From positions 2,848,001 to 2,912,000 of the forward strand of contig OZ219791.1 in the NCBI GenBank assembly GCA_964291215.2: a stretch of DNA of 64,000 nt, in the 5' to 3' direction. Below the pieces are notes generated by a model. It was not told the DNA's origin, did no database searches, and saw only the letters and a list, made by a program, of their open reading frames with translations. A program made the position numbers and the translations under genes. This DNA is from Alphaproteobacteria bacterium. Lineage in GTDB: Bacteria; Pseudomonadota; Alphaproteobacteria; MPNO01; UBA830. Of this stretch, positions 12,467 through 61,830 are shown piece by piece (within the stretch, counting starts at the first letter, position 1; each line of letters opens with the position of its first letter).

Positions 12467-12542
<76 letters not shown>

Positions 12543-12929: not shown

Positions 12930-14755
12930 GTATCTACTCACCCCTTGTTGGGTTCTGATTGGCCATAGTGCTCGTTGATGATGTCTGCGGCTTTTCCGTC
13001 GAGGGCGATCTGGGTGGCGACGTGATGATTGTAGCCGAGTGCGGCCATGGAGGTGAGGTAGCTTGGCACCATGCTTTTGCGTGGAGCGGAAGCATCCGGA
13101 CACCTTGAGCTTTGCCATCCTGATCTTCTGTTCTCCGGCATTGTTGGTGAAGCTGACGTCGGGTGCGCCAGGCAAACTGGTGGAATGTGGCCGGGTGCAA
13201 GTCCCGAGAGAGGCTAATTTCTCCGTGAACCATGCGTCGCCAGGCGAAGCGTTGGGGAGCGGCAGGCTATTGAGCCACGAGATGCTTTGAAACCGGAGTG
13301 CCGAGGTCGTGGCCGAAGGCAACGAGCCGCGTTGGTGAGGGGGGCTCCGCGGGGTCCGAGAACCATGGCCGAAGCAGGGACCTGGGAGGTCTTGCCCCTC
13401 TGTCGTGGAGGGGCCGCAGAGGAAATTCCGTAAGCCGATGATGAACGAGAAGTCAGATTCGGCCATAGTACCGCTGAAGGCGGCGAACAAGGGCTCTCCG
13501 GAGCCTGCGGAGTTGCTGGAGGGAAGGGCAATGCGGTTGGCCCGCGCCGCGCGCAGAAGCGGGGGTCACAGGCGGCAGGTAGCGAAGAGGAACCCGGAAG
13601 AGCGTCTTTACTCCACCACGTGATGTTCTGCGTTCCATTCCTTGAGGAAGGATGCGGCGGCGGGGCGTTGTGTGGCAAACGTACGGGGTGGAACTGCTGC
13701 ACGCCCGTGTGCACAGGGGCGGGCGCCTCCAGGGTCTACATTCCCAAGGAGGGGCAACTTGCCTCGGACAAGATTCTTCAGCGGGCGGTGTGATTCTGGT
13801 GCCGCGAAACGGAGTTCCTCGGTTCCGGCCGGGGCGCATCATGCGCCGTCACGGTGGAACGGCGGAAGGTCAACTGGATCGTTGACGCCCCTTCGACAAC
13901 CGCGACCATCTGGTTGCGATGCTCGGGAAACGGATCGGGGGGTCTGATCATCAAGTGACGCCGGCGTCATGGAAGGGGCCGACTGGCAAGGGAACACCGC
14001 AAGGGGCGGCGCCTTGCGAACCTGCACTACGTGCGACTGGTTCCAGAACCACTGGCGCAAGCGGGACACGATCATTATGCGGACGACTTCGTGTGCGGCT
14101 TTCAGAATCTGGGCGACGCTGAGACCTTGGGGAGAGACTGGCCCACTTGAACTGCACCCGGAAAATCATCGAGTTCGGTCGGTTTGCCAGAGCGAACCGC
14201 CGGAAGCGTGGACAAGACGTTCGACTTCCTCGGCATGACGCACTTCTGCGAACAGACGAGGAAAGGCAGGTTCAGGGTCGGTCGCAAACGGGCACCCTGC
14301 GGCGGATCAAAAAGGCCTTGCGCAAGCGGTGGCACGATAACCGGCACGAAACGGCCAAGTGGTGAGTTATCAACGGCTGCTACTACGCCGTTCCAGGAAG
14401 CAGCCTGCAGAAGTTCATACACCAATGCAAACAGCTGCGTGCCCTTCGGCGACGCTCCCAAAAGGACTTCACCGGGGACATAGACACCCTCACCGCTGCC
14501 CACTGAGCCCGTGGCCAAACCAGCGCCTTGTCGTCAGGGGAGGAGCGAACAGCGCACGTCCGGTTCTGTGCGGGGGGTAACCCGGTTCCCTACCGCGATG
14601 GTCGTCTGTGAAGCGCAGGTTTTCGTATTTCACGAGACGTTCGTGCAGGTTGTGCGCGTTTGCGATGCGTCCACGTTTTCCTTTCGTCGGCGGCGGGATG
14701 TCGGGCAGTTCCCTGGCGCCCTGATGGTGCGCTTGCGCACGGCCCGGCGGTCGGC
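12930..14755 (-). mobile_element. IS66-family element, right portion; interrupted by a group II intron and truncated by IS110 copy 1
   Basis: Right end GGGGTGAGTAGATAC as at ~31018-31032; transposase fragments FTNNAGEQKIRMAK..VSGCFRS and YLTSMAALGYN; colinear with 29430-29800. Confidence 0.88.
13163..14599 (+). mobile_element. ltrA: Group II intron with degenerate reverse transcriptase/maturase
   Basis: Starts GTGCG (13163) and ends ...CCCTACCGCGAT (14599) after a domain V/VI-like GCACGTCCGGTTCTGTGCGGGGGG. RT remnants GTPQG (~13990), YADDFV (~14076), LELHPE, TFDFLGMTH. Exons rejoin to match the intron-less IS66 at ~29571-29592. Confidence 0.92.
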
Positions 14756-14851
14756 CTTATATGATCAGGTTTTATCCCCATGATGATGAAATCATCCACA
14801 GCGGTTGGGGTGGGAAAAAATGTGGATAACCTCGACTATGGGAGAGCTATG

Positions 14852-15047
14852 GTTGCAGAGAGATTCCGCTCCCCTGTGTGAGAACGTACAGGGGAGCGGG
14901 GATCAAACGATCTCCGCGGAGATTGCCGTTCCGTCCTTGGCTTTATAGAGCCGTTCCCGAGCGTGGCAACCTCCTTTGGCGTCCCTTGCGTCCTGAATGG
15001 ATGCTTGAGTTTGAACCGTATCATCATAAGGCGAGGAACAAGGGACG
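14852..15047 (+). ncRNA. Putative bridge RNA (IS110 copy 1)
   Basis: 5' hairpin (GCAGAGAGAT..CCGCTCCCCTG/CAGGGGAGCGG..); loop closed by GGAGATTGCC/GGCAACCTCC contains TCCCGAG (complement of right flank CTCGGGA); second loop has ATGGATGCT (= element right end) and ATAAG (complement of left end CTTAT). Confidence 0.8.
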
Positions 15048-15800
15048 ATGGTAGCAGGGGTCAGCCAGTCTGGACATCTGGGGCGTCGTTTTACGAACGA
15101 CGCCACGGGCACGTGGCTTCGCAGCCTCGAGGTAACCCGTGTGGTGGGCGACAGGCCGCTATCACCGCAAGGTTCACCAGTGTCTTCATGACCGGGGCTT
15201 CGAGGTTGTCCTGCCCGTTGAGGGCTTCGCCGAGGCTTTGGGCCAACCGCGTTGACGCCAAGATCGGCACGGTGCGATCTCGAGCCTGTGGCCCCTCAGG
15301 AAGCCTTCCTCAACTGCCTGGGGGATCTCCTGGTGCCGCGCTTGTCGACGTGCGGACCAAGTTGAGGCAAGTGGCAGATGAGGTGGATGGCGAGACCGTC
15401 ACAAGGGCTTCGGCGGCCGATCTCGATGATTGCCGGTGCGGCGATCAAAGCGGTGATCGCCGGTGATCCCGAGCAGAGGTACCCTGACCTCGATCCCCGG
15501 TCCAGTGACCGCCGCAGCCCTTCCTTGTTGGATGCCCGAACTCGGCAGCGTCGGCAGCCTTGATCGGGGTGGCGCCGATGGCCAACGACAGTGGCCAGCA
15601 CCACGGTGCTCGGCATATCCGTGGCGGGCGCCGGAGGCCACGTGATCTCCTGTTCATGGCCGCGACCTCGGCAGCACGCTTCAACGCGGATCTAGTGCGC
15701 CACAAGGCCTACAAAGTCGCCATTGTCGCCGTGATGCGCAAGCTCTGGCGAACACCTTGCTGCGACAGCAGCGTTGCTGGTCGCCCGAAGCACCGGTGAG
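15048..15800 (+). pseudogene. IS110 recombinase/transposase pseudogene (copy 1)
   Basis: NRVDAKI, GPVTAAAL..WMPELG, IGVAPMANDSGQHHGARHIRGGR (Transposase_20 serine motif), KVAIVAVMRKL; many deletions and frameshifts. Confidence 0.9.
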
Positions 15801-16075
15801 TGAGCGAAGGAGACACGGCCCTCACCTCTGCCGAGAAACAGCGCCGTTATCGGGAACGCCGCAAATCTCTGCCCACGGAAAGCCCCGTCGTTCCCGTGCG
15901 CAACGCTGGCGCGATGCGGTGGCTCGGTGCAGTGCAGGAGCACTGTCGGGACTGTCTCGACAGTCTCCCCGACTCCCTGCGCGACACGGCTTGCGGAGAA
16001 CGTCTGCAGATCATCGTCGAGGCTGACATCGCGGATCTTGAGGACATCGAACCGCCGCGCGGCTACGGACGGAAC
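15800..16075 (+). pseudogene. Small passenger protein within IS110 (AEKQRRYRERRK...LDSLPDSL...IEPPRGYGR)
   Basis: Present in all three copies directly after the transposase; function unknown; frameshifted. Confidence 0.65.
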
Positions 16076-16309
16076 ACCTGGAACCCCATTGACCACGGTA
16101 ACGTTACCATGCACGGGGACGCTGGACGGCAAGGTGGCCGCGCTCACGTGACCGTGAGCAATGGACGGCAACCCGCCGCCGGGACCACAAGCTGCATCTC
16201 GTCTCACTCGCAGGACATCGACAAGGCGGAACCTCGGACCGCCTGTGGACAACCACAGAAAAAATCACCGCGGACACCCGCAAAAACCTTGCCTGGAAAC
16301 ATGGATGCT

Positions 16310-16712
16310 CGGGATGCCAGGTCGCCATCATCGCCAGGCGCTTGTCCTCGCCGTCGCTCCACGGTGACCTCGCCAAGCTCCTCCGGAGAACATGCGAGTT
16401 CCTTGTCGGGACAGTCCTGCTCAAAGGTGCCGGTGTCGAGGCCATGAGGCCCTGGTGCAGGAAGGACGATGCCGAGCGACGAGGCAAGATCAGGCAGCGC
16501 CGCACGCGGCAAGGCACAACTCGCCCTTCGCGTTGCGCCAGTCCTCGCGTTCGCACAATCCCTGCGCCAGGGGCGAGCGCGTGTTGCCCTCGGCAACCGA
16601 CGCCGCCTTCAGCCAATCAACCGTCGTCGTGGATAGATGTCGAAAGCCAATTCTCATGGGCCACTATATAAGGCCTCATGAACGACGATTCGATCATGGT
16701 TCGTTGAAAGGA
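16310..16712 (-). mobile_element. 5' fragment of a DUF4338-associated IS4-like element; carries the empty IS110 target site
   Basis: IGFRHLSTTTVDWLKAASVAEG..LAQGLCEREDWRNAKGELCL..MMATWHPE; end motif CTTTCAAC; homologous to 59960-59997 joined to 61523-61830. Family assignment is recalled, not searched. Confidence 0.6.
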
Positions 16713-25578: not shown

Positions 25579-28134
25579 TTATCCGAAATCGAAGTCCCCG
25601 GCATTCACCTCGGTCACGCCTTCAAGAACGATCAGGCTGCCGCCCACATCCGTCAGATCAATGACTGTTTCGCTTCCGTCTCTCGTGGTGATTCTGCTCT
25701 CGAGATCGCTGAAGTCATCTATGCTGGCGTAGCCGGAAATCTGGATGGTGTCTTCCCCGTGTCTGCCGAAATCCTGGATCGTGTGAACAGCGCCACTGGT
25801 GCCGCCAATTCTGTTGAGGAAGACGAATGTGTCGTCGCCGTGCTCGCCGTACATGGTGTCGTCACCGGCGCCGCCACGCAAGGTGTCATCGCCCCAGCCA
25901 CCGTTCAGGGTGTCATCGCCGTCGCCGCCATGCAAGGTGTTATCGCCCCAGGAATTTTCCAAGGTGTCGTCGCCGTCGCCACCGTACATGGTGTCGTCGC
26001 CGTGGCCGCCGTACATGGCGTCGTCACCGGCGCCGCCATGCAAGGTGTCATCGCCCCAGCCACCGTGCAGGGTGTCGTCGCCGTCATCGCCATACAGCGT
26101 ATCGCCGCCCCTGTCGCTCCAACCGGCGAACAGCATGTCGTTGCCATGACCGCCATGTAGTGTGTCGTAGCCCTTGCCACCGAACAGGGCGTCGTCGCCA
26201 GCGCTGCCGTGTAAGGTGTCGTCGCCGTCGTGGCCGTACAGGATATCGTCGCCGTGGCTGCCATCCAGATGGTCGTCGCCGGTGCCGCCATGCAGGATTT
26301 CGCCGGCACTGGCCTTTATTTGGAAATTGCCGGTTGTTTCATCGAGCCCCAGGGAGATGCCCGACACATTCAACAACCTGATCATGACATCATCGTCGAC
26401 GGAGTCGTAGCGAATGACAGTATCGGCACCGTCTCGACTGATATCAAGCTTGATACCGGATCCTTGGATAAGAATCGTGTCGTCCGCCGTGAAATCGGCG
26501 ATGGTGTCGCTTCCATCTGCCGCAGGGTACCGGACGAGGTAGCCATCAGGGCCAAGGTACGACGGTCCTCCCGTCCAGAACACGAAGGTGTCAGCGCCCG
26601 AGCCGCCGTACAGGACATCGTCGCCGCCATCGCCCTCCAGAGTATCGTCGCCCGAACCGCCGTACATGGTATCGTCGTCGTCGCCGCCCGTCAGCGTGTC
26701 GTCGCCGTCATGGCCGTACAGGATATCGTCGCCGTCGTGGCCGTGCAGGATATCGTCGCCCGTGCCGCCGTTCAGGATTTCGCCGACACCGGCCTTTATT
26801 TGCAAATTGCCGGTTGTTTGATTGCCCTCCAAGGAGAGGCCCGACACATTCAACAACCTGATCGTGGCACCACCGTCGACGGAGTCGTAGCGGATGACGG
26901 TATCGGCACCGTCTCGACTGATGTCAAGCGTGTGTTTGATATGGATTCCTTGGATAAGAATCGTGTCGTCCGCCGTGAAATCGGCAATGGTGTCTCTTCC
27001 ATCTGCCGGATTGTACCGGCGTCCCCCTCCCGTCCAGAACACGAAGGTGTCAGCGCCCGAGCCGCCGTACAGGACATCGTCGCCGCGACCGCCCTTCAGA
27101 GTATCGTCGCCCGAACCGCCGTACATGGTGTCGTCGCCTTCGTCGCCGTGGAGTATGTCGTCGCCCTTGCCGCCCCCCAGCGTATCGTCGCCAGCCCCGC
27201 CGCGCAGGGTGTCGGCACCCCTGGCGCCGCGCAGCGTGTCGTCGCCCGCGCCGCCGTCCAGCGTGTCGTTGCCCTTGCCGCCCCCCAGCGTATCGTCGCC
27301 AGCCCCGCCGGTCAGCGTGTCGGCGCCCAGGCCGCCATAGAGGAGGTCGTCGCCGGCCCCGCCGGTCAGCGTGTCGGCGCCCCCGTAGCCACGCAGGGTG
27401 TCGGCGCCATCACCACCGGTGAGCGTGTCCGCGTCCTTGCTACCCTTCAGCACCTCGCCGCCAGAAGGCCCGCCGCTCGAGGCGTCGCCGGACGTGCCCT
27501 CCGGCGGCGCGCCCTGTGCAAGAGCGTCCTCGCCGCCGCCCTCCGGCGGGGCTGCCTCGACGGGAAGGAACCGGAAGTCGTCCGCGCCAAGGGAGGCCGC
27601 CGTCACGCCCTCCAGCTTGATCGTGTCGCCGTCGCCGTAGCGGATGACGGTATAGAAGCCCTTCTGCTCGATCACCAGATCCCCGAAACCGCCGGACACC
27701 CCGGCAATCTCGATGATGTCGCCAGCCTCGAAATCGCCGATGTAGTCGGCCCCGTCGCCGACCGCGAACGCAAAGACGTCATGGCCACTGCCGCCATAGA
27801 GCGAGTCCGTGCCCCGGCCGCCGGTCAGCCTGTCGGCGCCCCGGCCGCCTTCCAGACGGTCGTTGCCCGCACCGCCATCGACCGTGTCGTCACCGTCGCC
27901 GCCATAGAGCGTGTCGTTGCCCGTGCCGCCGTCCAGCGTGTCATCGTCCGAGCTGCCGGGGTTCATGAGGAGAAAGTCCGCGTCGGCTCCCGCGCTTGCG
28001 GTTCCGCCCGTCAGCGTGTCGTCGCCGTCGCCGCCCGTCAGGATGTCGTCGCCGAGGCCGCCCTTCAGGATGTCATTGCCGAGGCCACCCGTCAGGGTGT
28101 CGTCGCCAGCACCGCCGGTCCGCTCGATAGCCAT
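25579..28134 (-). CDS. RTX-repeat (hemolysin-type Ca2+-binding) protein, probable T1SS substrate
   Basis: 851 aa; dozens of GGxGxDxLx nonapeptides; internally duplicated DTIADF..DGADTVIRYD modules; AGGAGG RBS. Confidence 0.93.
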   Translation of the reverse strand: MAIERTGGAGDDTLTGGLGNDILKGGLGDDILTGGDGDDTLTGGTASAGADADFLLMNPGSSDDDTLDGGTGNDTLYGGDGDDTVDGGAGNDRLEGGRGADRLTGGRGTDSLYGGSGHDVFAFAVGDGADYIGDFEAGDIIEIAGVSGGFGDLVIEQKGFYTVIRYGDGDTIKLEGVTAASLGADDFRFLPVEAAPPEGGGEDALAQGAPPEGTSGDASSGGPSGGEVLKGSKDADTLTGGDGADTLRGYGGADTLTGGAGDDLLYGGLGADTLTGGAGDDTLGGGKGNDTLDGGAGDDTLRGARGADTLRGGAGDDTLGGGKGDDILHGDEGDDTMYGGSGDDTLKGGRGDDVLYGGSGADTFVFWTGGGRRYNPADGRDTIADFTADDTILIQGIHIKHTLDISRDGADTVIRYDSVDGGATIRLLNVSGLSLEGNQTTGNLQIKAGVGEILNGGTGDDILHGHDGDDILYGHDGDDTLTGGDDDDTMYGGSGDDTLEGDGGDDVLYGGSGADTFVFWTGGPSYLGPDGYLVRYPAADGSDTIADFTADDTILIQGSGIKLDISRDGADTVIRYDSVDDDVMIRLLNVSGISLGLDETTGNFQIKASAGEILHGGTGDDHLDGSHGDDILYGHDGDDTLHGSAGDDALFGGKGYDTLHGGHGNDMLFAGWSDRGGDTLYGDDGDDTLHGGWGDDTLHGGAGDDAMYGGHGDDTMYGGDGDDTLENSWGDNTLHGGDGDDTLNGGWGDDTLRGGAGDDTMYGEHGDDTFVFLNRIGGTSGAVHTIQDFGRHGEDTIQISGYASIDDFSDLESRITTRDGSETVIDLTDVGGSLIVLEGVTEVNAGDFDFG

Positions 28135-28536: not shown

Positions 28537-29803
28537 TGGCGACGGTCAACGCGGCGCGCGAGGAGTTCGAAGCGGCCAAGACCGCGGCGCTGCCGGCAAG
28601 GTGCCGAAAGAGGCCGTGATCCGCGTCTTCGTCATCCTGCTCGACATCCTCATCGTCGTCCTTCTGGAGAAGACCACGCACGAGCCGGAACTCCGGTCTG
28701 CCGTCGTCACAGACGGACAAGGACGAGAGCGCGAAGCATGCCGGGAGCAACGGCAAGGGCCCGAAGCCGAACCGGCAGATGGGCGACAACCTGCGCAAGA
28801 CCATCGTCGAGGAAACGGTCGCGGCCTGCGACGCCTGCGGCGCCGACATCGACGGCCCCGTCGATCAGGAGCGCCGCGTCCTCTATGACATCGTGTTCGA
28901 GGTTGTCGAGCGCCGCGCCGAGATCAAGGAATGCCCGAAGTGCAAGGCCCGGACCAAGGGCCGGTTCCCCGACAACATCCCGTGCAGTACGGCATCGACA
29001 TCCAAGCCCTCGTCATCAACCTGCTGGTCGCCCAGATGCTGTCCCTGCGCCGTCGCGTTCGTGCAGGCGATCTCCGGCATCAAGCTCTCCGAGGCCTCGG
29101 CTATGCTTTCACGATGCGTCATGGGAGGAGGCCGCCGTGGCGCACCTCCTGCAACGCCCGATGTCGATGATTTCGGATCAACAGCAAGTGGTTTCATGTC
29201 GTGGGACCCTGACGTGCAAGTTCCCGCACCGCAAGCGCGGGCAAGAGATCGGCCCGTGCTACAAGGACGTCTTGGGCCTCGTACATGGGCCAGTGTAGCC
29301 ACCAGCTGTGTGGCAGCCACCTGCTGCGCGAACTGACCTTTGTCGTCGAGGCTGCTGCGCGACTGATGAAGAGCCTGCTCCGCGAGGTCTGCCACAAGGT
29401 CAACAAGAGCGCATCCAAAACCCTGAACGAGGCCGTGCCGTGCGCAAGCGCTACCGCACCATCAGGGCGCCAGGGAACTGCCCGACATCCCGCCGAAAGG
29501 AAAACGTGGACGCAAGTCCGACGCGCACAACCTGCACGAACGTCTCGTGAAACACGAAAACCTGCGCTTCACAGACGACCCCGACGTCAGCTTCACCAAC
29601 AATGCCGGAGAACAGAAGATCAGGATGGCAAAGGTCAAGGTGTCCGGATGCTTCCGCTCCACGCAAAAGCATGGTGCCGGGGCTCAAGCTACCTCACCTC
29701 CATGGCCGCACTCGGCTACAACCCACTCGTCGCCACCCAGATCGCCCTCGACGGAAAAGCCGCAGACATCATCAACGAGCACTACGACCAATCAGAACCC
29801 AAC

Positions 29804-31017
29804 TAGTAGTCTGGCATTATTGGATTGACGGATATAGAGACTTCAGTTTCGTCCGGGCATCCTTCGTCGTGAAACGCCAGTCGACAGTGACATCGGCCGC
29901 ATTGCGGCGCTCGACCCACGCCACGGTCTCCCGCAGCATGGTGTCGCGGTCGGGAATGCGTCGCCGAAGGCATTGCCGCGACAGCGCGCCGATCTCGGCC
30001 ATGTTGAGCCAGCTTCGGCGTATAGCGAAACTCGAACCGCTTTCGTACCCGCCTCCTCGGGCTCGAAGGCTTCATACAGTGACTGTGCGTGTTCAGATTG
30101 TCCAGCACGATCTTCCTGTCGGGGAAATGGTCGTCGGCAAGCTCCCGGATGAAGTGCGCCCAGTCCCGCGGCGGTCGGTGACTTTCACCGTGCGCCAGTT
30201 TTCGTTGGGCGCAAAGGCCATGAAGAGGTTGGCCGTGCCGTTGCGCTCATATTCATAGTCGACCACCTCCGGCTGACCGGAGGACGGGGGGGGGGGGGGG
30301 GGGTCCTTCGTCTGCTGCCGGCTGGTCTCAGCACCTCGTCCCTGGCAAAGTCCCGCTGACAAATGTCAAGCACGTCCGCCGCCACGAACTGTGCGCTCCG
30401 GTGCGGTGGAATGCACCAGTTCAGCCACGGCTTGATCTTTTTTTTTAGCGTCTTCCTGACCGTCTCTTCCGAAATGCGCTCGACGATCTCCACCAGACGG
30501 CCGGCGAGCAGCTTCAGCGTCCACAGCCCTCGGGCGGGGACGAGACCAGCTTCGCCTCCATCGCCCCCGTTTTGGCCGGCGGTTCACCTGCTCCTTGCGG
30601 CTGAGGGCGGCGTCCAGCCCCTCCAGGACGCAGCGCTTGCGCAAGCGCTCGACCGTCGCCGTGCCGATGCCCAGCCCTTGCGCAATGTCGGCATCGACAA
30701 GCGCCCCCTCAGCATCAGGATTTGTGTCCGGCGCCAGGCAGCCCCGGTGCCGTCGACAATCGCCTTCAGATCCCGGCGCTCCTGCGCTGAAAGGGTCACC
30801 CGGTAGAGCTTCCTGCCCCGAGAGTTGGCCATATGCGCTGCTCCTGTCATTGCGCCGAAGACCTGCGGGCATGCCCGTTGTCCGGACCTGCGCATGGGGC
30901 TGCCTGCCTGTTCGGCATCTTGCCCGTGTGGATATCGGCACTGTCCAGATTCCAACGAACGCCGACACGAAAATACTACCCACAAAAAACCATCAATACA
31001 ATGCCGGTGGACTACTA
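29804..31017 (-). mobile_element. IS630-family element inserted at TA inside the IS66 right end
   Basis: Ends CTAGTAGTC../..GACTACTAG; KLYRVTLSA, DYEYERNGTANLF, LDNLNTH, DWRFTTKDARTKLKSLYP; flanks rejoin to match 12930-12962. Confidence 0.92.
30286..30303 (+). repeat. G18 homopolymer inside the IS630 transposase relic
   Basis: 18 consecutive G (C18 on the coding strand, reads as poly-Pro). Confidence 0.9.
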
Positions 31018-32464
31018 GGGGTGAGTAGATACGTCCAGAAAATAAAATTTGCGCTCATGGTGCCTGTTCGGCCGCAGGGGATGGGGCTCCATGGCAAGGC
31101 ATGATATGCATCCCGCGCCGAAAGGCTATTCCATGCCGGCAGCCGGGGCAAGCGCCCCGGCGGCCACAACACGGTGATCCCATGCCAGGTTTGTTGGAAG
31201 GATTGATTCCGCTTGTTCAGGATGATTCGCATTTTCGCAGGCTTTTTGTGAAGCGGCGCAGTATCCGTTGTCGTGGAGGCAGCGGATTTTTTTGAGACGA
31301 CTCCGGAGGGTTTTGCGCTCCGGGATGTGGTTGTGCGCCTTGCGCGGCCTAGTGCCGCTGGAACCGTGTGGTTGACCGTCATCACTATCCTGGTTTCAAG
31401 CAGTTTGCCGGTCGAGGTCTGCGTGTTCACTTGGCGCGGGCGGTGGATTGGTGCTGCGGGCTGGCAGACGGGCGCCCTCAGCTGCGCACCGCGGGACCGT
31501 TGGATTGGCTGGCGCCGCGAGGAACAGTTCAGGCGGTTGCCGGGAACAACACGAGGTTTGTTGTTCCTGGTGGTCGCCGGGTGTTTCCGGGCCTCGTTTG
31601 CGTTGTCGCGGATGGTGCGGCGGCGACCGGGAGGCTGCCGTTGCTTGTTGCGGAGAAGTTTGTCTCGCCGACGAAGTTCAGCGGCACCATGTACAAGGCG
31701 GCGAACCGGGAGGGCGTTGGCAGGGGCCATGCGCGCGCCATACCGACCGGCACGGGAAGGCGAAGGATCCTTACGTGTTTCCACTGCGTCGTGACGCGGG
31801 ATCGTTCGCCGCTTCCTGCGGCGTGGGAGTTGCGGGCGCCGCTGGTCGGCGCAGGAGTTGCGCTCGATTTATCAGCGGCGCTTTCCGGCGCGCGCAGGGG
31901 CACCGCATCGCCTCGGTACTGTGCGTGATTTTGCTGGCTTGCGAACCGGCGCGGTTGCGGCAGCGCACTACGACGCAGAAGGAGCTGGAGCAGCATGGAA
32001 GAACAGGGACAAGCCGGTCTCCACCGTGCACCGGGTGCTGCAGAACACCGACCCGGGATGGATCGAGGATGCGGCGCGCAGCCGCAGGTCGGCAACGCGG
32101 TCGACGGCAAGCGCACCGGCGAGGATCATTACGAGACGGTCTCGCTGGCCGGTATTCGATCCTCAACTGTCACGACGGGGAGATCGCTGCCGTCCACGCC
32201 GCGACGGCCGTCTGCTCACCCTCGACGCGTTCCACACCACCCGCGAGGCTGATCGTCGAGACCCGTCGCGCGGGCTGATGGTCAAGGGCAACGCACCTTC
32301 GAGAGAGCATCAACTGGAAGACCGCCAGCGCTACAACGAAAAGCCCGCGCATGGCCGCCAGCGCACCATCTTCACCCCGCTGGCGAAGATGATCAACTAG
32401 TCAAGCAGATCTTCCGCGTCACCCGGCGCGTCGAATTCAGGAAATCCGGAAAACCGAACACGCC

Positions 32465-33757
32465 ATATGATCAGGTTTTGTCCCCTTGATGATGAAATCA
32501 TCCACAGCAGTTGGGGGCGGGAAAATGTGGACAACCCCGACTGTGGGAGAGCGTCCGATCTATGGTTGCAGAGAGATTCCGCTCCCCTGAGCGAACACGC
32601 ACAGGGGAGCAAACGATCTCCGCGGAGGTTGCCGTTTCGACCTTGACAGAGCCGCGTCCGAGTTTGGCAACCTCCCTTGACGTCCCTCGCTGGATGCTTG
32701 GGTTTGAACCCGTATCATCACAAGGCGAGGAGCGATGGTCAAGGTAGTAGCAGGGGTCAGCCAGTCTGGACATCTGGCGCATTGTTTTGCGAACGACGCC
32801 ACGGGCAGGTGGCTTCGCGGCCTCGGGGTGAGCCGGGTGGTGGGCGACAGGCCGCTATCACCGCAAGGTTCACCAGTGTCTTCATGACCGGGGCTTCGAG
32901 GTTATCCTCGTCAACCCGTTGCGGGCGCTTCGCCGAGGCGATGGGCCAACCGCGTCGACGCCAGGATCGGCACGGTGAGCCTGTGGCTCCGCCTTCCTCA
33001 AGAACCTGGAGGATCTCCTGGTGCCGCGCTTGTCGACGCCAAGCAGGTGGCAGATGAGGTGGATGGCGAGACCGTCATAAGGGCCCCGGCGGCCGATCTC
33101 GATGATCGCCGGTGATCCCGAGCAGAGCTACGCCATCCTGACCTCGATCCGGTGACCGCCGCGGCCCTTCTGGATGCCCGAATTCGGCAGTGTCGGCAGC
33201 CTTGATCGGGGTGGCGCCAACGACCACGGTGCTCGGCACATCCGTGGCGGGCGCCGAAGGCCACGCGATCTCCTGGCCGCAACCAGCACGCTTCAACGCG
33301 GACCTGGCAAGCGTGTTCGAGCGCCTCAAGACTGCCGGCAAGCAAGGTCGCGATTGTCGCCGTGATGCGCAAGCTCTGGCGAACACCTTGCTGCGACAGC
33401 AGCGTTGCCTGAAGCACTGGTGAGTGAGCGAAGGAGACACGGCCCTGCCGAGAGCGCGACCGGGACTGTCTCGACAGTCTCCCTCTACGACACGGCTTGG
33501 GGAGAACATCTGCAGATCATCGTCGAGGCCGACATCGAGGAGACCGAACCGCCTTGGGACACCTGGAACCCGGACGGTCACGTGCCCGGGGACGGCAAGG
33601 TAGCCGCGTTCACGTGACCAATGGACGGCAACCCGCCGCCGGGACCACAAGCTTCATGTCGCCTCGCTCGCAGAGCAAATCCCACACCGCTTGTGGACAA
33701 CCACAGAAAACATCACCACAGACACCCGCAAAAACCTTGCCAAGAAACATGGATGCT
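32465..33757 (+). mobile_element. IS110 element copy 2 (most eroded; left core damaged)
   Basis: Colinear with copy 1; right end AAACATGGATG-CT at 33756-57; both flanks are ISAs1 transposase sequence. Confidence 0.88.
32565..32734 (+). ncRNA. Putative bridge RNA (IS110 copy 2)
   Basis: Same stems as copy 1; loop GTCCGAG (32656-62) predicts CTCGGAC against observed flank CTCGGTC; TGGATGCT and ACAAG donor guides. Confidence 0.7.
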
Positions 33758-59997: not shown

Positions 59998-61522
59998 AGC
60001 ATCCATGTTTCCTGGCAAGGTTTTTGCGGGTGTCCGCGGTGATGTTTTCCGTGGTTGTCCACATGCGGTCCGGGGTACCGCTTCGCCGATGTCCTGCGAG
60101 CGAGGCGACATGCAGCTTGTAGTTCCGGCGGCGGGTTGCCGTCCATTGCTCAAGGTCACGTGAGCGCGGCCACCTTGCCGCCCAGCGTCCCCGGGCATGA
60201 TAACGTTACCGTTGTCAATGGAGTTCCGGGTGTCCCGTCCGTAGCCGCGCGGCGGTTCGATGTCCTCGAGAGCCTCGATGTCGGCCTCGACGATGATCTG
60301 CAGACGTTCTCCGCAAGCCGTGTCGCGCGGGGAGACTGCCGAGACAGTGCTCCTGCAACGCACCGAGCCACCGCATCGCGCCAGCGTTGCGTACGGAAAC
60401 GACGGGGCTTTCCGTGGGCGGGGATTTGCGGCGTTCCCGATAACGGCGCTGCTTCTCGGCAGGGGCGAGAGCCGCGTTTCCTTCGCTCGCTCACCGGTGC
60501 TTCGGGCGACCAGCAGCGTTGCTGTCGCAGCAAGGCGTTCGCCAGAGCTTGCGCATCACGGCGACAATCGCGACCTTGCTTGCCGGCGGTCTCGAGGCGT
60601 TCGAACACCAGGTCCGCGTTGAAGCGTGCCGCCGAGGTCGCGGCCATGAACAGGAGATCGCGTGGCCTTCTGCGCCTGCCTCGGATGTGCCGGGCACCGT
60701 GGTCGTTGGCCATCGGCGCCACCCCGATCAAGGCTGCCGAGTTCGGGCATCCAGAAGGGCGGCGGCGGTCACCGGATCGAGGTCAGGATGCCGTACCTCT
60801 GCTCGGGATCACCGCTTTGATCGCCGCACCGGCGATCATCGAGATCGGCCAGGCCCTTGTGACGGTCTCGCCATCCACCACATCTGCCACCTGCCTGGCG
60901 TCGACAAGCGCGGCACCAGGAGATCCTCCACGCTCTTGAGGAAGGCACCCTGAGGAGCTACAGGCTCGAGATCGCACCGTGCCGATCCTGGCCAGCGTCG
61001 ACGCGGTTGGCCAGATGGCCCAACGCTTCGGCGAAGCCCGCAGCGGGCAGGACAACCTCGAAGCCCCGGTCATGAAGACACTGGTAAACCCTGCGGTGAT
61101 AGCGGCCTGTCGCCCACCACACGGGTCACCTCGAGGCTGCGAAGCCACGTGCCCGCCAGCTCGCGGCGTCGTTCGCAAAACGACGCGCTGCCGCACGGAC
61201 TGGCCTTGCTGACCCCTGCTACTACCTTGACCATTGTCCCTTGCTCCTCGCCTTGTGATGATACGGTTCAAACTCGGGCATCCATTCAGGACGCCAGGGG
61301 AGGTTGGCCGACCACGCTCGGGAACGGCTCTGCAAAGCCAGGGGCGAAACGGCAACCTCCGCGGAGATCGTCTGATCCCCGCTCCCCCGTGCGTGTTCGC
61401 ACAGGGGAGCGGAATCTCTCTGCAACCGGGTACTCTCCCACAGTCGAGGTTGTCCACATTTTCCCGCCCCCGACCGCTGTGGATGACTTCATGATCACGG
61501 GGATACAACCCGGTCATACAAG
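59998..61522 (-). mobile_element. IS110 element copy 3
   Basis: CT cores at 61522-21 and 59999-98 (minus strand); rejoined flanks GGGCCACTATGTACGGC-CT-CATGAAC match the empty site at 16658-16683. Confidence 0.92.
61235..61426 (-). ncRNA. Putative bridge RNA (IS110 copy 3)
   Basis: Same fold as copy 1; ATGGATGC and ACAAG guides match this copy's donor junction ATGGATG-CT-TGT. Confidence 0.78.
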
Positions 61523-61830
61523 GCCGTACATAGTGGCCCATGGAATTGGCTTTCGACATCTGTCCGCGACGACGGTTGATTGGCTGAAGGCGGCGTCGGT
61601 TGCCGAGGACAGCACGCCCTGGCGCAGGGATTGTGCGAGCGCGAGGACTGGCGCAACGCGAAGGGCGACCTGTGCCTTGCCCCCGCGCTCGACATCGTCA
61701 TGCGCGTGACCGCAATCCTGCCCAAACTCCACGAAACGGGCTCGCCAGGTCAGTCGGGAACGCTGAAACAACGCAACGGTCTGACGCTGCCCCCGCCACT
61801 TGGCCTGAGCTGCCCAAAACCGCGTGGTTG
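61523..61830 (+). pseudogene. DUF4338-associated IS4-like transposase N-terminal fragment (left end at ~59960-59997, separated by IS110 copy 3)
   Basis: IGFRHLSATTVDWLKAASVAED..LAQGLCEREDWRNAKGDLCL..ILPKL. Confidence 0.6.

Follow-up and report, generated by a model that had tools for sequence, protein, structure and literature searches.

IS110 bridge recombinases are usually regarded as one-protein, one-RNA systems, and for the extra ORFs of IS21- and IS66-type elements a regulatory role has long been surmised, with no evidence for it. IS621 and the IS110 group (Durrant et al. 2024, PMC11208160) have a short core at both ends, a long left end with guide segments matching target and donor, a junction promoter that in IS621 is rebuilt on the circle, and a recombinase with DEDD and Tnp20 domains. 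The element studied here is similar: its core is CT, its left end holds guide-like segments, a candidate junction promoter is predicted from a −35/−10 pair, and the two domains are found in the recombinases of intact relatives. It is unlike IS621 in that the intact relatives have a right arm of about 580 bp with a selected second gene and two palindromic sites, and in that the copies at hand are all pseudogenes. Hu et al. (2026, bioRxiv 10.64898/2026.08.14.744561) also describe extra genes inside the ends of expanded IS110 elements, the cargo of which is mostly plasmid-derived resistance DNA; by keyword, the main text of that preprint contains no small regulator or site cassette. In IS21 and IS66 elements (PMC3281130), an ORF located downstream of the transposition genes is suspected of regulating transposition; unlike those ORFs, the gene described below represents one family accompanied by its own conserved site across six element types. 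A likeness exists also to CopB/RepA2 of IncFII plasmids (PMC5717011), a small auxiliary repressor of a mobile element with a similar stretch of 18 N-terminal residues (PLSxAEKQR-type, not significant); beyond this stretch the cassette protein is unrelated to CopB, which works on a replication promoter in tetrameric form. IS110 elements with cargo and extra ORFs in IS21/IS66 are already in print in these sources; what appears to be new here, from sequence comparison and structure modelling, is a palindrome that lies beside the gene whatever the carrier, together with a predicted dimer whose basic helix is outside the interface.

The window, i.e. the whole stretch of 64,000 nucleotides that was analysed, contains three copies of an IS110 element of the IS621-like group (Table 1). 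With slightly better than even confidence, we read the right arm of this element as what is left of a broken portable cassette, the protein of which is likely a dimer that would bind an S-GTNACGTNAC-S site to regulate transcription, with no dependence on the IS110 recombinase.

Table 1. Positions of the element copies and of the parts of copy 1 in the window.
Feature	Position	Strand	Remark
IS110 (IS621-like group) element copy 1	14756..16309	+	decayed; CT core at each end
Element copy 2	32463..33757	+	arm 334 bp; N-terminal half of small gene deleted
Element copy 3	59998..61522	-	arm 493 bp; frameshift in small gene, which also lacks start and stop
Left end, predicted bridge RNA region	14758..15047	+	guide-like segments read by eye
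Guide-like segment matching target left flank	~14929-14937		by eye
Guide-like segment matching target right flank	~14954-14961		by eye
Guide-like segment matching donor left	~14995-15006		by eye
Guide-like segment matching donor right	~15020-15031		by eye
IS110 recombinase pseudogene	15048..15799	+	23 deletions of 1-17 bp and one insertion relative to intact L019
Ribosome-binding site AAGGAGA of small gene	15807..15813	+	ATG that follows in relatives deleted here
Pseudogene of 96-aa cassette protein	15818..16072	+	69% identity to intact L019 protein
Non-coding distal right end	16073..16307	+	open frame fortuitous
Palindromic site 1, GGTAACGTTACC, predicted operator	16097..16108	.	sole exact GTNACGTNAC in window
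Decayed palindromic site 2	16143..16152	.	one mismatch; relatives have an intact one 52 bp beyond site 1
Forms of the candidate palindromic site			GGTAACGTTACC, CGTTACGTAACG

The core-defined ends from which the original prediction started hold for copy 1, which is bounded by CT on either side. The window's genome (G000) has about 80 BLAST clusters of the element and 57 near-full copies; the CT core is present at 56 of the 57 right ends and at 37 of the 57 left ends of these copies. An empty site of the relative L013, recognized in three of the four runs examined, skips the whole 1,839 bp element precisely, with a 2-bp overlap. The recombinase gene in the window aligns with that of L019 over 750 bases, with 56 mismatches and 23 deletions; its remnant matches PF02371 (E 8.7e-8), and the recombinases of the intact relatives (315-332 aa) match both PF01548 and PF02371, so that the DEDD RuvC-like and Tnp20 domains of the IS110 family are represented. 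In the predicted bridge RNA of the left end, guides matching target and donor can be read from sequence only: the right-target segment is the reverse complement of the core plus four flank bases in 35 of the 57 copies (a count for which no null was computed), and, judged by eye, changes in the flanks of L013, L019, L026 and the window are matched by changes in their guide-like segments. The target-guide segments (14929-14961 in the window, and those of the other G000 copies) vary between copy groups and track the flanks; this amounts to a natural diversification of guides within one genome. A −35-like TTGCCT at 16289-16294 and a −10-like TATGAT of the left end would be paired, with a 17-nt spacer, only on the circle (a match to consensus only), and a sigma-70 scan of the intact integrated element found no promoter. 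The circle joint was not found in the contigs of the runs examined, an assembly product that drops rare forms. The words TGTGGATAA and TGTGGACAA, which we take to resemble DnaA boxes, occur at 14821-14829 and 16244-16252, one per element end, and are conserved in relatives.

A long arm with a remnant of the small protein is indeed present in all three copies, as had been claimed, but from the transposase remnant to the right core it spans 510, 334 and 493 bp in copies 1, 2 and 3, rather than 400-500 bp, and copy 2 has no N-terminal half of the gene. Likewise, the pieces of the small-protein peptide that had been quoted exist, but they are stitched together from two frames (RRSRAQRWRDAVA from frame 3, the rest from frame 1). 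By comparison with L019, the small gene of copy 1 has lost 6 bp including the ATG, and then 7, 6, 6 and 5 bp; two compensating frameshifts leave it out of frame from ~15864 to ~15921, after which the frame is regained, and a further 7 bp deletion takes out the stop codon. The frame reads through into the flank because the deleted 7 bp contain the stop. This distal frame, said to be open through the right core in copies 1 and 3, is open in all three copies and in seven relatives, and is shifted in five lineages; we consider it non-coding because its dN/dS is 1.08, there is no third-position bias, and the chance of surviving stop-free is ~0.3 per pair. The suggestion that the C-terminus depends on the insertion site or on circularisation is not supported. 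The overlap of the small gene with the end of the transposase is only apparent, because the native stop region of the transposase is deleted in the window: in the intact relatives the transposase ORF stops 14-32 nt before the small-gene ATG, with a ribosome-binding site in between. As for the captured ISAs1 fragment, the words from which it was recognized do not belong to one frame (LDGKVA is in frame 2, RSRD and LHLVS in frame 3) and are not conserved in relatives, while the best tblastn match between nine arms and two ISAs1-type proteins of G000, themselves decayed, has an E of 0.25. The apparent read-through, overlap and ISAs1 fragment are all products of heavy decay by small deletions.

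Further candidates were considered. A reading of the distal frame as a third ORF, from an ATGA overlap to the core, is rejected on these frame shifts and substitution statistics; a fusion protein across the circle junction is rejected because the joined-end translations vary in length (87-216 aa where the frame reaches the core) and have no conserved product; microhomology-driven deletion is not supported, most breakpoints having only 0-2 bp in common.

The decay extends to the whole genome. An intact small gene is found in none of the 69 G000 copies examined, and copy 70 is broken too; its N-terminal half, including the basic helix, is missing in 47 of the 57 near-full copies, and no intact recombinase of the window's clade was found in G000. 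All copies of the small gene in this genome are broken, and the gene is dead here. The element copies all bear deletions of 1-17 bp, and those with identical deletions are numerous. The 57 copies have only 16 distinct right flanks, three of which are common to 18, 13 and 9 copies: since the flanks are so few and three of them so widely common, many copies probably multiplied through recombination or as passengers of other repeated elements. An expansion in G000 caused by loss of the small gene is not supported, given this small number of flanks and an IS21 element with the intact gene that reaches at least 29 copies in another genome. A second genome, G314 (L089-L111), contains many decaying IS110s of a distant lineage with the small gene, the stop of which is often lost.

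When an 85-aa piece of the small protein was used as query, 27 proteins were retrieved (one from G000), most of them 96 aa long; the family proteins start with MALTPAEKQRRYRE and end with PPRGYGRDT, the C-terminus being mostly GRDT/A, and a profile search yields 1,479 representatives at E≤0.001 (clustering at 50% identity). Intact IS110 relatives occur in several alphaproteobacterial MAGs, and the runs with one are mostly labelled sponge metagenome. In these relatives the 96-aa ORF is a non-transposase gene that lies within multi-copy IS110 elements of 1.8-2.0 kb and moves with them. On IS110 its dN/dS is 0.10-0.35 in 15 of 15 pairs (0.19-0.40 for the transposase), and in the intact relatives 34 of 59 variable columns are third positions. 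The small gene is real, is under purifying selection, and is located inside IS110 ends in relatives; to this extent the prediction of a cargo-bearing IS110 was right. A neutral hitchhiker, i.e. a captured fragment with no current function, could account for the absence of any intact gene from G000, but the transposases are equally broken in that genome, and the substitution pattern in the intact relatives contradicts it; we regard this explanation as very improbable.

Sequence searches of the small protein in Pfam, NCBIfam and PDB returned nothing specific, and the gene has no match among PLSDB plasmids or INPHARED phages. A DNA search of 40 relatives of G000 gave only one 62-bp match, and the profile matches in three of 400 other genomes of the class, one of the matches being marginal. 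The literature surveyed (main texts, largely open-access) contains no description of the small gene or of the palindromic site; the sole match to the palindrome motif is a PCR primer.

The distribution of the gene was studied in 174 loci (75 from genomes, 80 from metagenomes, 6 of 11 viral, and 13 from the class scan), which were dereplicated at 90% to 83. The carrier is the same-strand upstream neighbour, an adjacency that is not proof of lying inside element ends; location inside the ends was set by repeats for IS110 and IS21 only, and the labels serine recombinase, ParA and IS21-toprim were assigned by hand from Pfam. By this definition the carriers of the 83 loci are IS21 (43), IS110 (22), IS256 (2), IS3 (1), and IS66 (1), with no carrier in seven loci and too little sequence in five; in one more locus the small gene precedes a large serine recombinase, and in one, plasmid-like, it adjoins ParA. 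Further loci of G441 add IS66 and serine-recombinase carriers. In a quick tree of the small protein the starred branches force at least five carrier changes, and the window's clade (99% support) comprises six IS110 and four IS21 loci. The other carrier IS110s are 23-33% identical to the window's recombinase over long alignments. The small gene is not IS110-specific.

Directionality factors are known for large serine recombinases, and such a factor is expected to be dedicated to one recombinase family. The original prediction had envisaged a two-component bridge recombinase, in which the small protein could be an accessory or directionality factor; as such it would bind the IS110 recombinase and tip the balance between excision and insertion. 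Several observations are consistent with this proposal: in the recombinase tree the small gene accompanies all seven members of the window's clade (100% support); in five genomes chosen for holding the gene it is carried by 21 of 25 IS110 loci of that clade, the four misses being transposase fragments; and the protein is helical and also adjoins large serine recombinases. However, the sister recombinase lineage (~45% identity) is without the gene, which is found beside none of the 22 informative IS110 loci at 34-46% identity (13 genomes; five more loci are cut by contig ends). Its carriers are unrelated enzymes, i.e. the DDE transposases of IS21 (more numerous than IS110), IS3, IS256 and IS66, serine recombinases, and the distant IS110s just mentioned, so that it is not dedicated to one recombinase family; the palindrome is left unexplained; and IS621 recombines with recombinase and bridge RNA alone (PMC11208160). 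We find a directionality factor improbable; gene and site occur together on many unrelated elements, and the protein is likely a regulator and not a dedicated helper of the IS110 recombinase. In the tabulation of neighbours that had been proposed as a check, the gene is not found beside the next-closest IS110s and follows IS21 more often than IS110, a distribution of the kind named beforehand as refuting the idea, though this is not a neutral capture.

Some of the carriers have features of their own. One MAG (L031-L059) contains at least 29 copies of an IS21-type element of more than 5 kb with a Cys-rich ORF, IstA, IstB, a Toprim-domain gene, the small gene, and a partial duplicate of the small gene. 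The cassette immediately precedes or follows large serine recombinase genes at L086, L263-L265 and L270-L272; L086 has a palindromic site ~35 bp ahead of a short ORF that is coupled to the recombinase. In the IS1111-type carriers (L137, L143, L152, L154, L173, L179, L180, L187, L201) the cassette stands between the transposase stop and the right-end non-coding region, and is followed downstream by a decayed repeat of the transposase 3' end, possibly a scar of cassette acquisition.

The distal arm of the intact relatives contains GGTAACGTTACC twice, at the spacing given in Table 1, and four times in L019. The pattern GTNACGTNAC was searched up to 130 bp before the AE[RK]Q codons or up to 110 bp after the stop in 80 of the 83 loci (three have no anchor): an exact match is found beside the gene in 68 of the 80, where 0.14 are expected from dinucleotide shuffles, and a match with one mismatch allowed in 75 of the 80, versus 5.2 in the shuffles; the remaining 264 kb of locus DNA has two matches. 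Since the pattern was picked after viewing the loci on which it was counted, and these loci are kin, bases outside the pattern and new loci were also checked. The flanking C and G, which were not part of the search pattern, are each kept in 63 of 64 sites, and in the window's clade 9 of 12 sites have G..C instead, changed on both sides; out of sample, a site is found within 130 bp in 12 of 14 further gene loci of G441 (some of them copies of one element), at a chance of ~0.5% each. The exact site is absent from 12 of the 80 loci and the one-mismatch site from 5, including the 29-copy IS21-toprim element; the site is missing also at 2 of 19 gene loci of G441. Several seemingly orphan sites adjoin decayed copies of the small gene.

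The position of the site depends on the clade. In distant members it is just upstream of the ribosome-binding site on IS21, IS110, IS3, IS256, IS66 and viral contigs; in most members ~8-22 nt separate it from the ATG/GTG that follows; the window's clade has it 12-23 nt past the small-gene stop; L078 and L274 have sites on both sides of the gene. A dyad beside its own gene is the arrangement of an autoregulatory repressor, the operator being in this case a predicted one. Of the elements checked for the exact site, four intact IS110s and two plain IS21s, none has it in the left end or ahead of the transposase. In G000 there are 20 matches outside the elements versus 25 expected genome-wide, and thus no host regulon is evident.

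An alternative is that the palindrome serves a host factor, or is a recombination/mobility site of the cassette, and that the protein earns its carriage in some other way (host benefit, anti-defence, addiction). The changing position of the site, upstream in most members, downstream in the window's clade and on both sides in L078/L274, is what a circularly permuted or tandem-duplicated unit would show, the transposase 3'-end repeat of the IS1111-type carriers flanks the cassette, and purifying selection reveals that the small gene has a function, not which one. Against this, G000 has no more than background numbers of the motif elsewhere, the site varies along with the protein clade, and the symmetry of the predicted dimer equals that of the site; all in all we judge this alternative rather unlikely. 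A different possibility is that the arginine-rich helix binds RNA, with the site working at the transcript level, either as an operator of translation or as a signal for antitermination. The closeness of the site to the ribosome-binding site and next start codon in most members would suit such a role, and in the window's clade the two sites and their flanks could pair as a long stem. However, only 36 of the 73 sites have N positions that can pair, and for this reason a dyad read by protein fits better than a hairpin; furthermore, the covariation term of RNAalifold for the distal arm is unfavourable (+1.24), and neither the arm nor the rest of the element has an Rfam match. We give little credence to an RNA target. 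At L013:4300-4395 and in relatives, the two palindromes, taken with ~8 bases of flank, make up a larger inverted repeat (TTGAWCAYG-site ... site-YGATCAA), and a CAYTGA-like word also precedes many other sites.

In the AlphaFold2 model of the 96-aa protein (pLDDT 89), a basic helix at residues 5-17 is followed by a linker and by helices at 34-85. The homodimer is predicted with an ipSAE of 0.76, the best of three controls being 0.00; the ipSAE mark is reached by 20 of 30 solved homo-pairs and by 1 of 23 single chains. The contacts of the homodimer runs agree at 93% or better, with pLDDT of at least 78. The confident part of the interface involves residues 34-95 only, including the near-invariant W38, A41 and L45 and the PPRGYGRD tail, and leaves the residues of the basic helix outside. 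These models support the formation of a dimer by the small protein. Foldseek and VIA-align recognized no DNA-binding fold, only generic helical hairpins (VIA-align best Z 6.3, rmsd 6.0); the coiled coil of the ISCro4 IS110 has rank 43 (Z 5.4), no better than unrelated rows, and an Atlas structure row has a TM of 0.54 to a cluster with 15% PF10723. The basic helix compared with RepA2/CopB gives an hhalign probability of 1.2% (E 0.044 over 18 columns, not significant), and NF010256 matches one of 71 family members (E 0.045).

The regulator reading can be spelled out as follows. The cassette, common to unrelated mobile elements, would consist of the 96-aa gene and the palindromic site. Its product would be a homodimer built from the helical hairpin and the PPRG[FY]GRD tail, leaving free two basic N-terminal helices that may read the dyad. 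In most members the placement of the site upstream of the ribosome-binding site would be operator-like, as for an autorepressor; in the window's clade the two sites downstream of the gene would lie ~150-200 bp before the −35 box of the circle junction, and the bound protein could damp transcription through the right end into the junction, the bridge RNA and the recombinase, or outward into flanking genes. Recombination itself would need only the recombinase and the left-end bridge RNA. Circular intermediates are listed for IS3, IS21, IS256 and IS110/IS1111 in a recent preprint (bioRxiv 10.1101/2023.06.07.543989), a list in which IS66 does not appear. Since these carriers have circular intermediates, and the cassette follows the transposition genes, it would end up upstream of junction and transposase on the circle. 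Counter-points to the regulator reading are that the window's clade has its sites after the gene, well away from any predicted promoter, and that most of the decayed copies in G000 (47 of 57) are without the basic helix.

A bolder form of this proposal, which we put forward as doubtful but worth stating, is that an undescribed dimeric DNA-binding family with its own GTNACGTNAC operator has been recruited repeatedly at the right ends of IS21, IS110, IS1111, IS3, IS256, IS66 and serine-recombinase elements, where it would throttle circle-junction transcription. If so, a bridge-RNA recombinase would for the first time be known to have a protein regulator encoded by its element, and copy number would be controlled across families, in trans, on every element that bears the site. 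Should the cassette regulate its carriers, it would represent a control module common to mechanistically unrelated transposons; should the protein regulate only itself, the cassette would still be a new compact repressor-operator pair. An unnamed widespread family (the 1,479 clusters mentioned above) now has a sharp candidate binding site, which makes its function directly testable.

Other repeats are present in the window. A decayed group II intron with RT remnants occupies 12944-14690, just left of copy 1, with an Rfam D1-D4 match at 13198-13364 and an adjoining tRNA at 12467-12539; the intron ends are repeated, inverted, near 29.5 kb (29448-29806). Another repeated fragment flanks copies 1 and 3 (16508-16653 and 61543-61681), and similar peptide text in L082 suggests that it belongs to a further transposase family. 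Finally, a large ORF at 25579-28134 contains ~34 copies of a 27-nt (9-aa) repeat, a pattern that is presumably that of RTX-type calcium-binding proteins.
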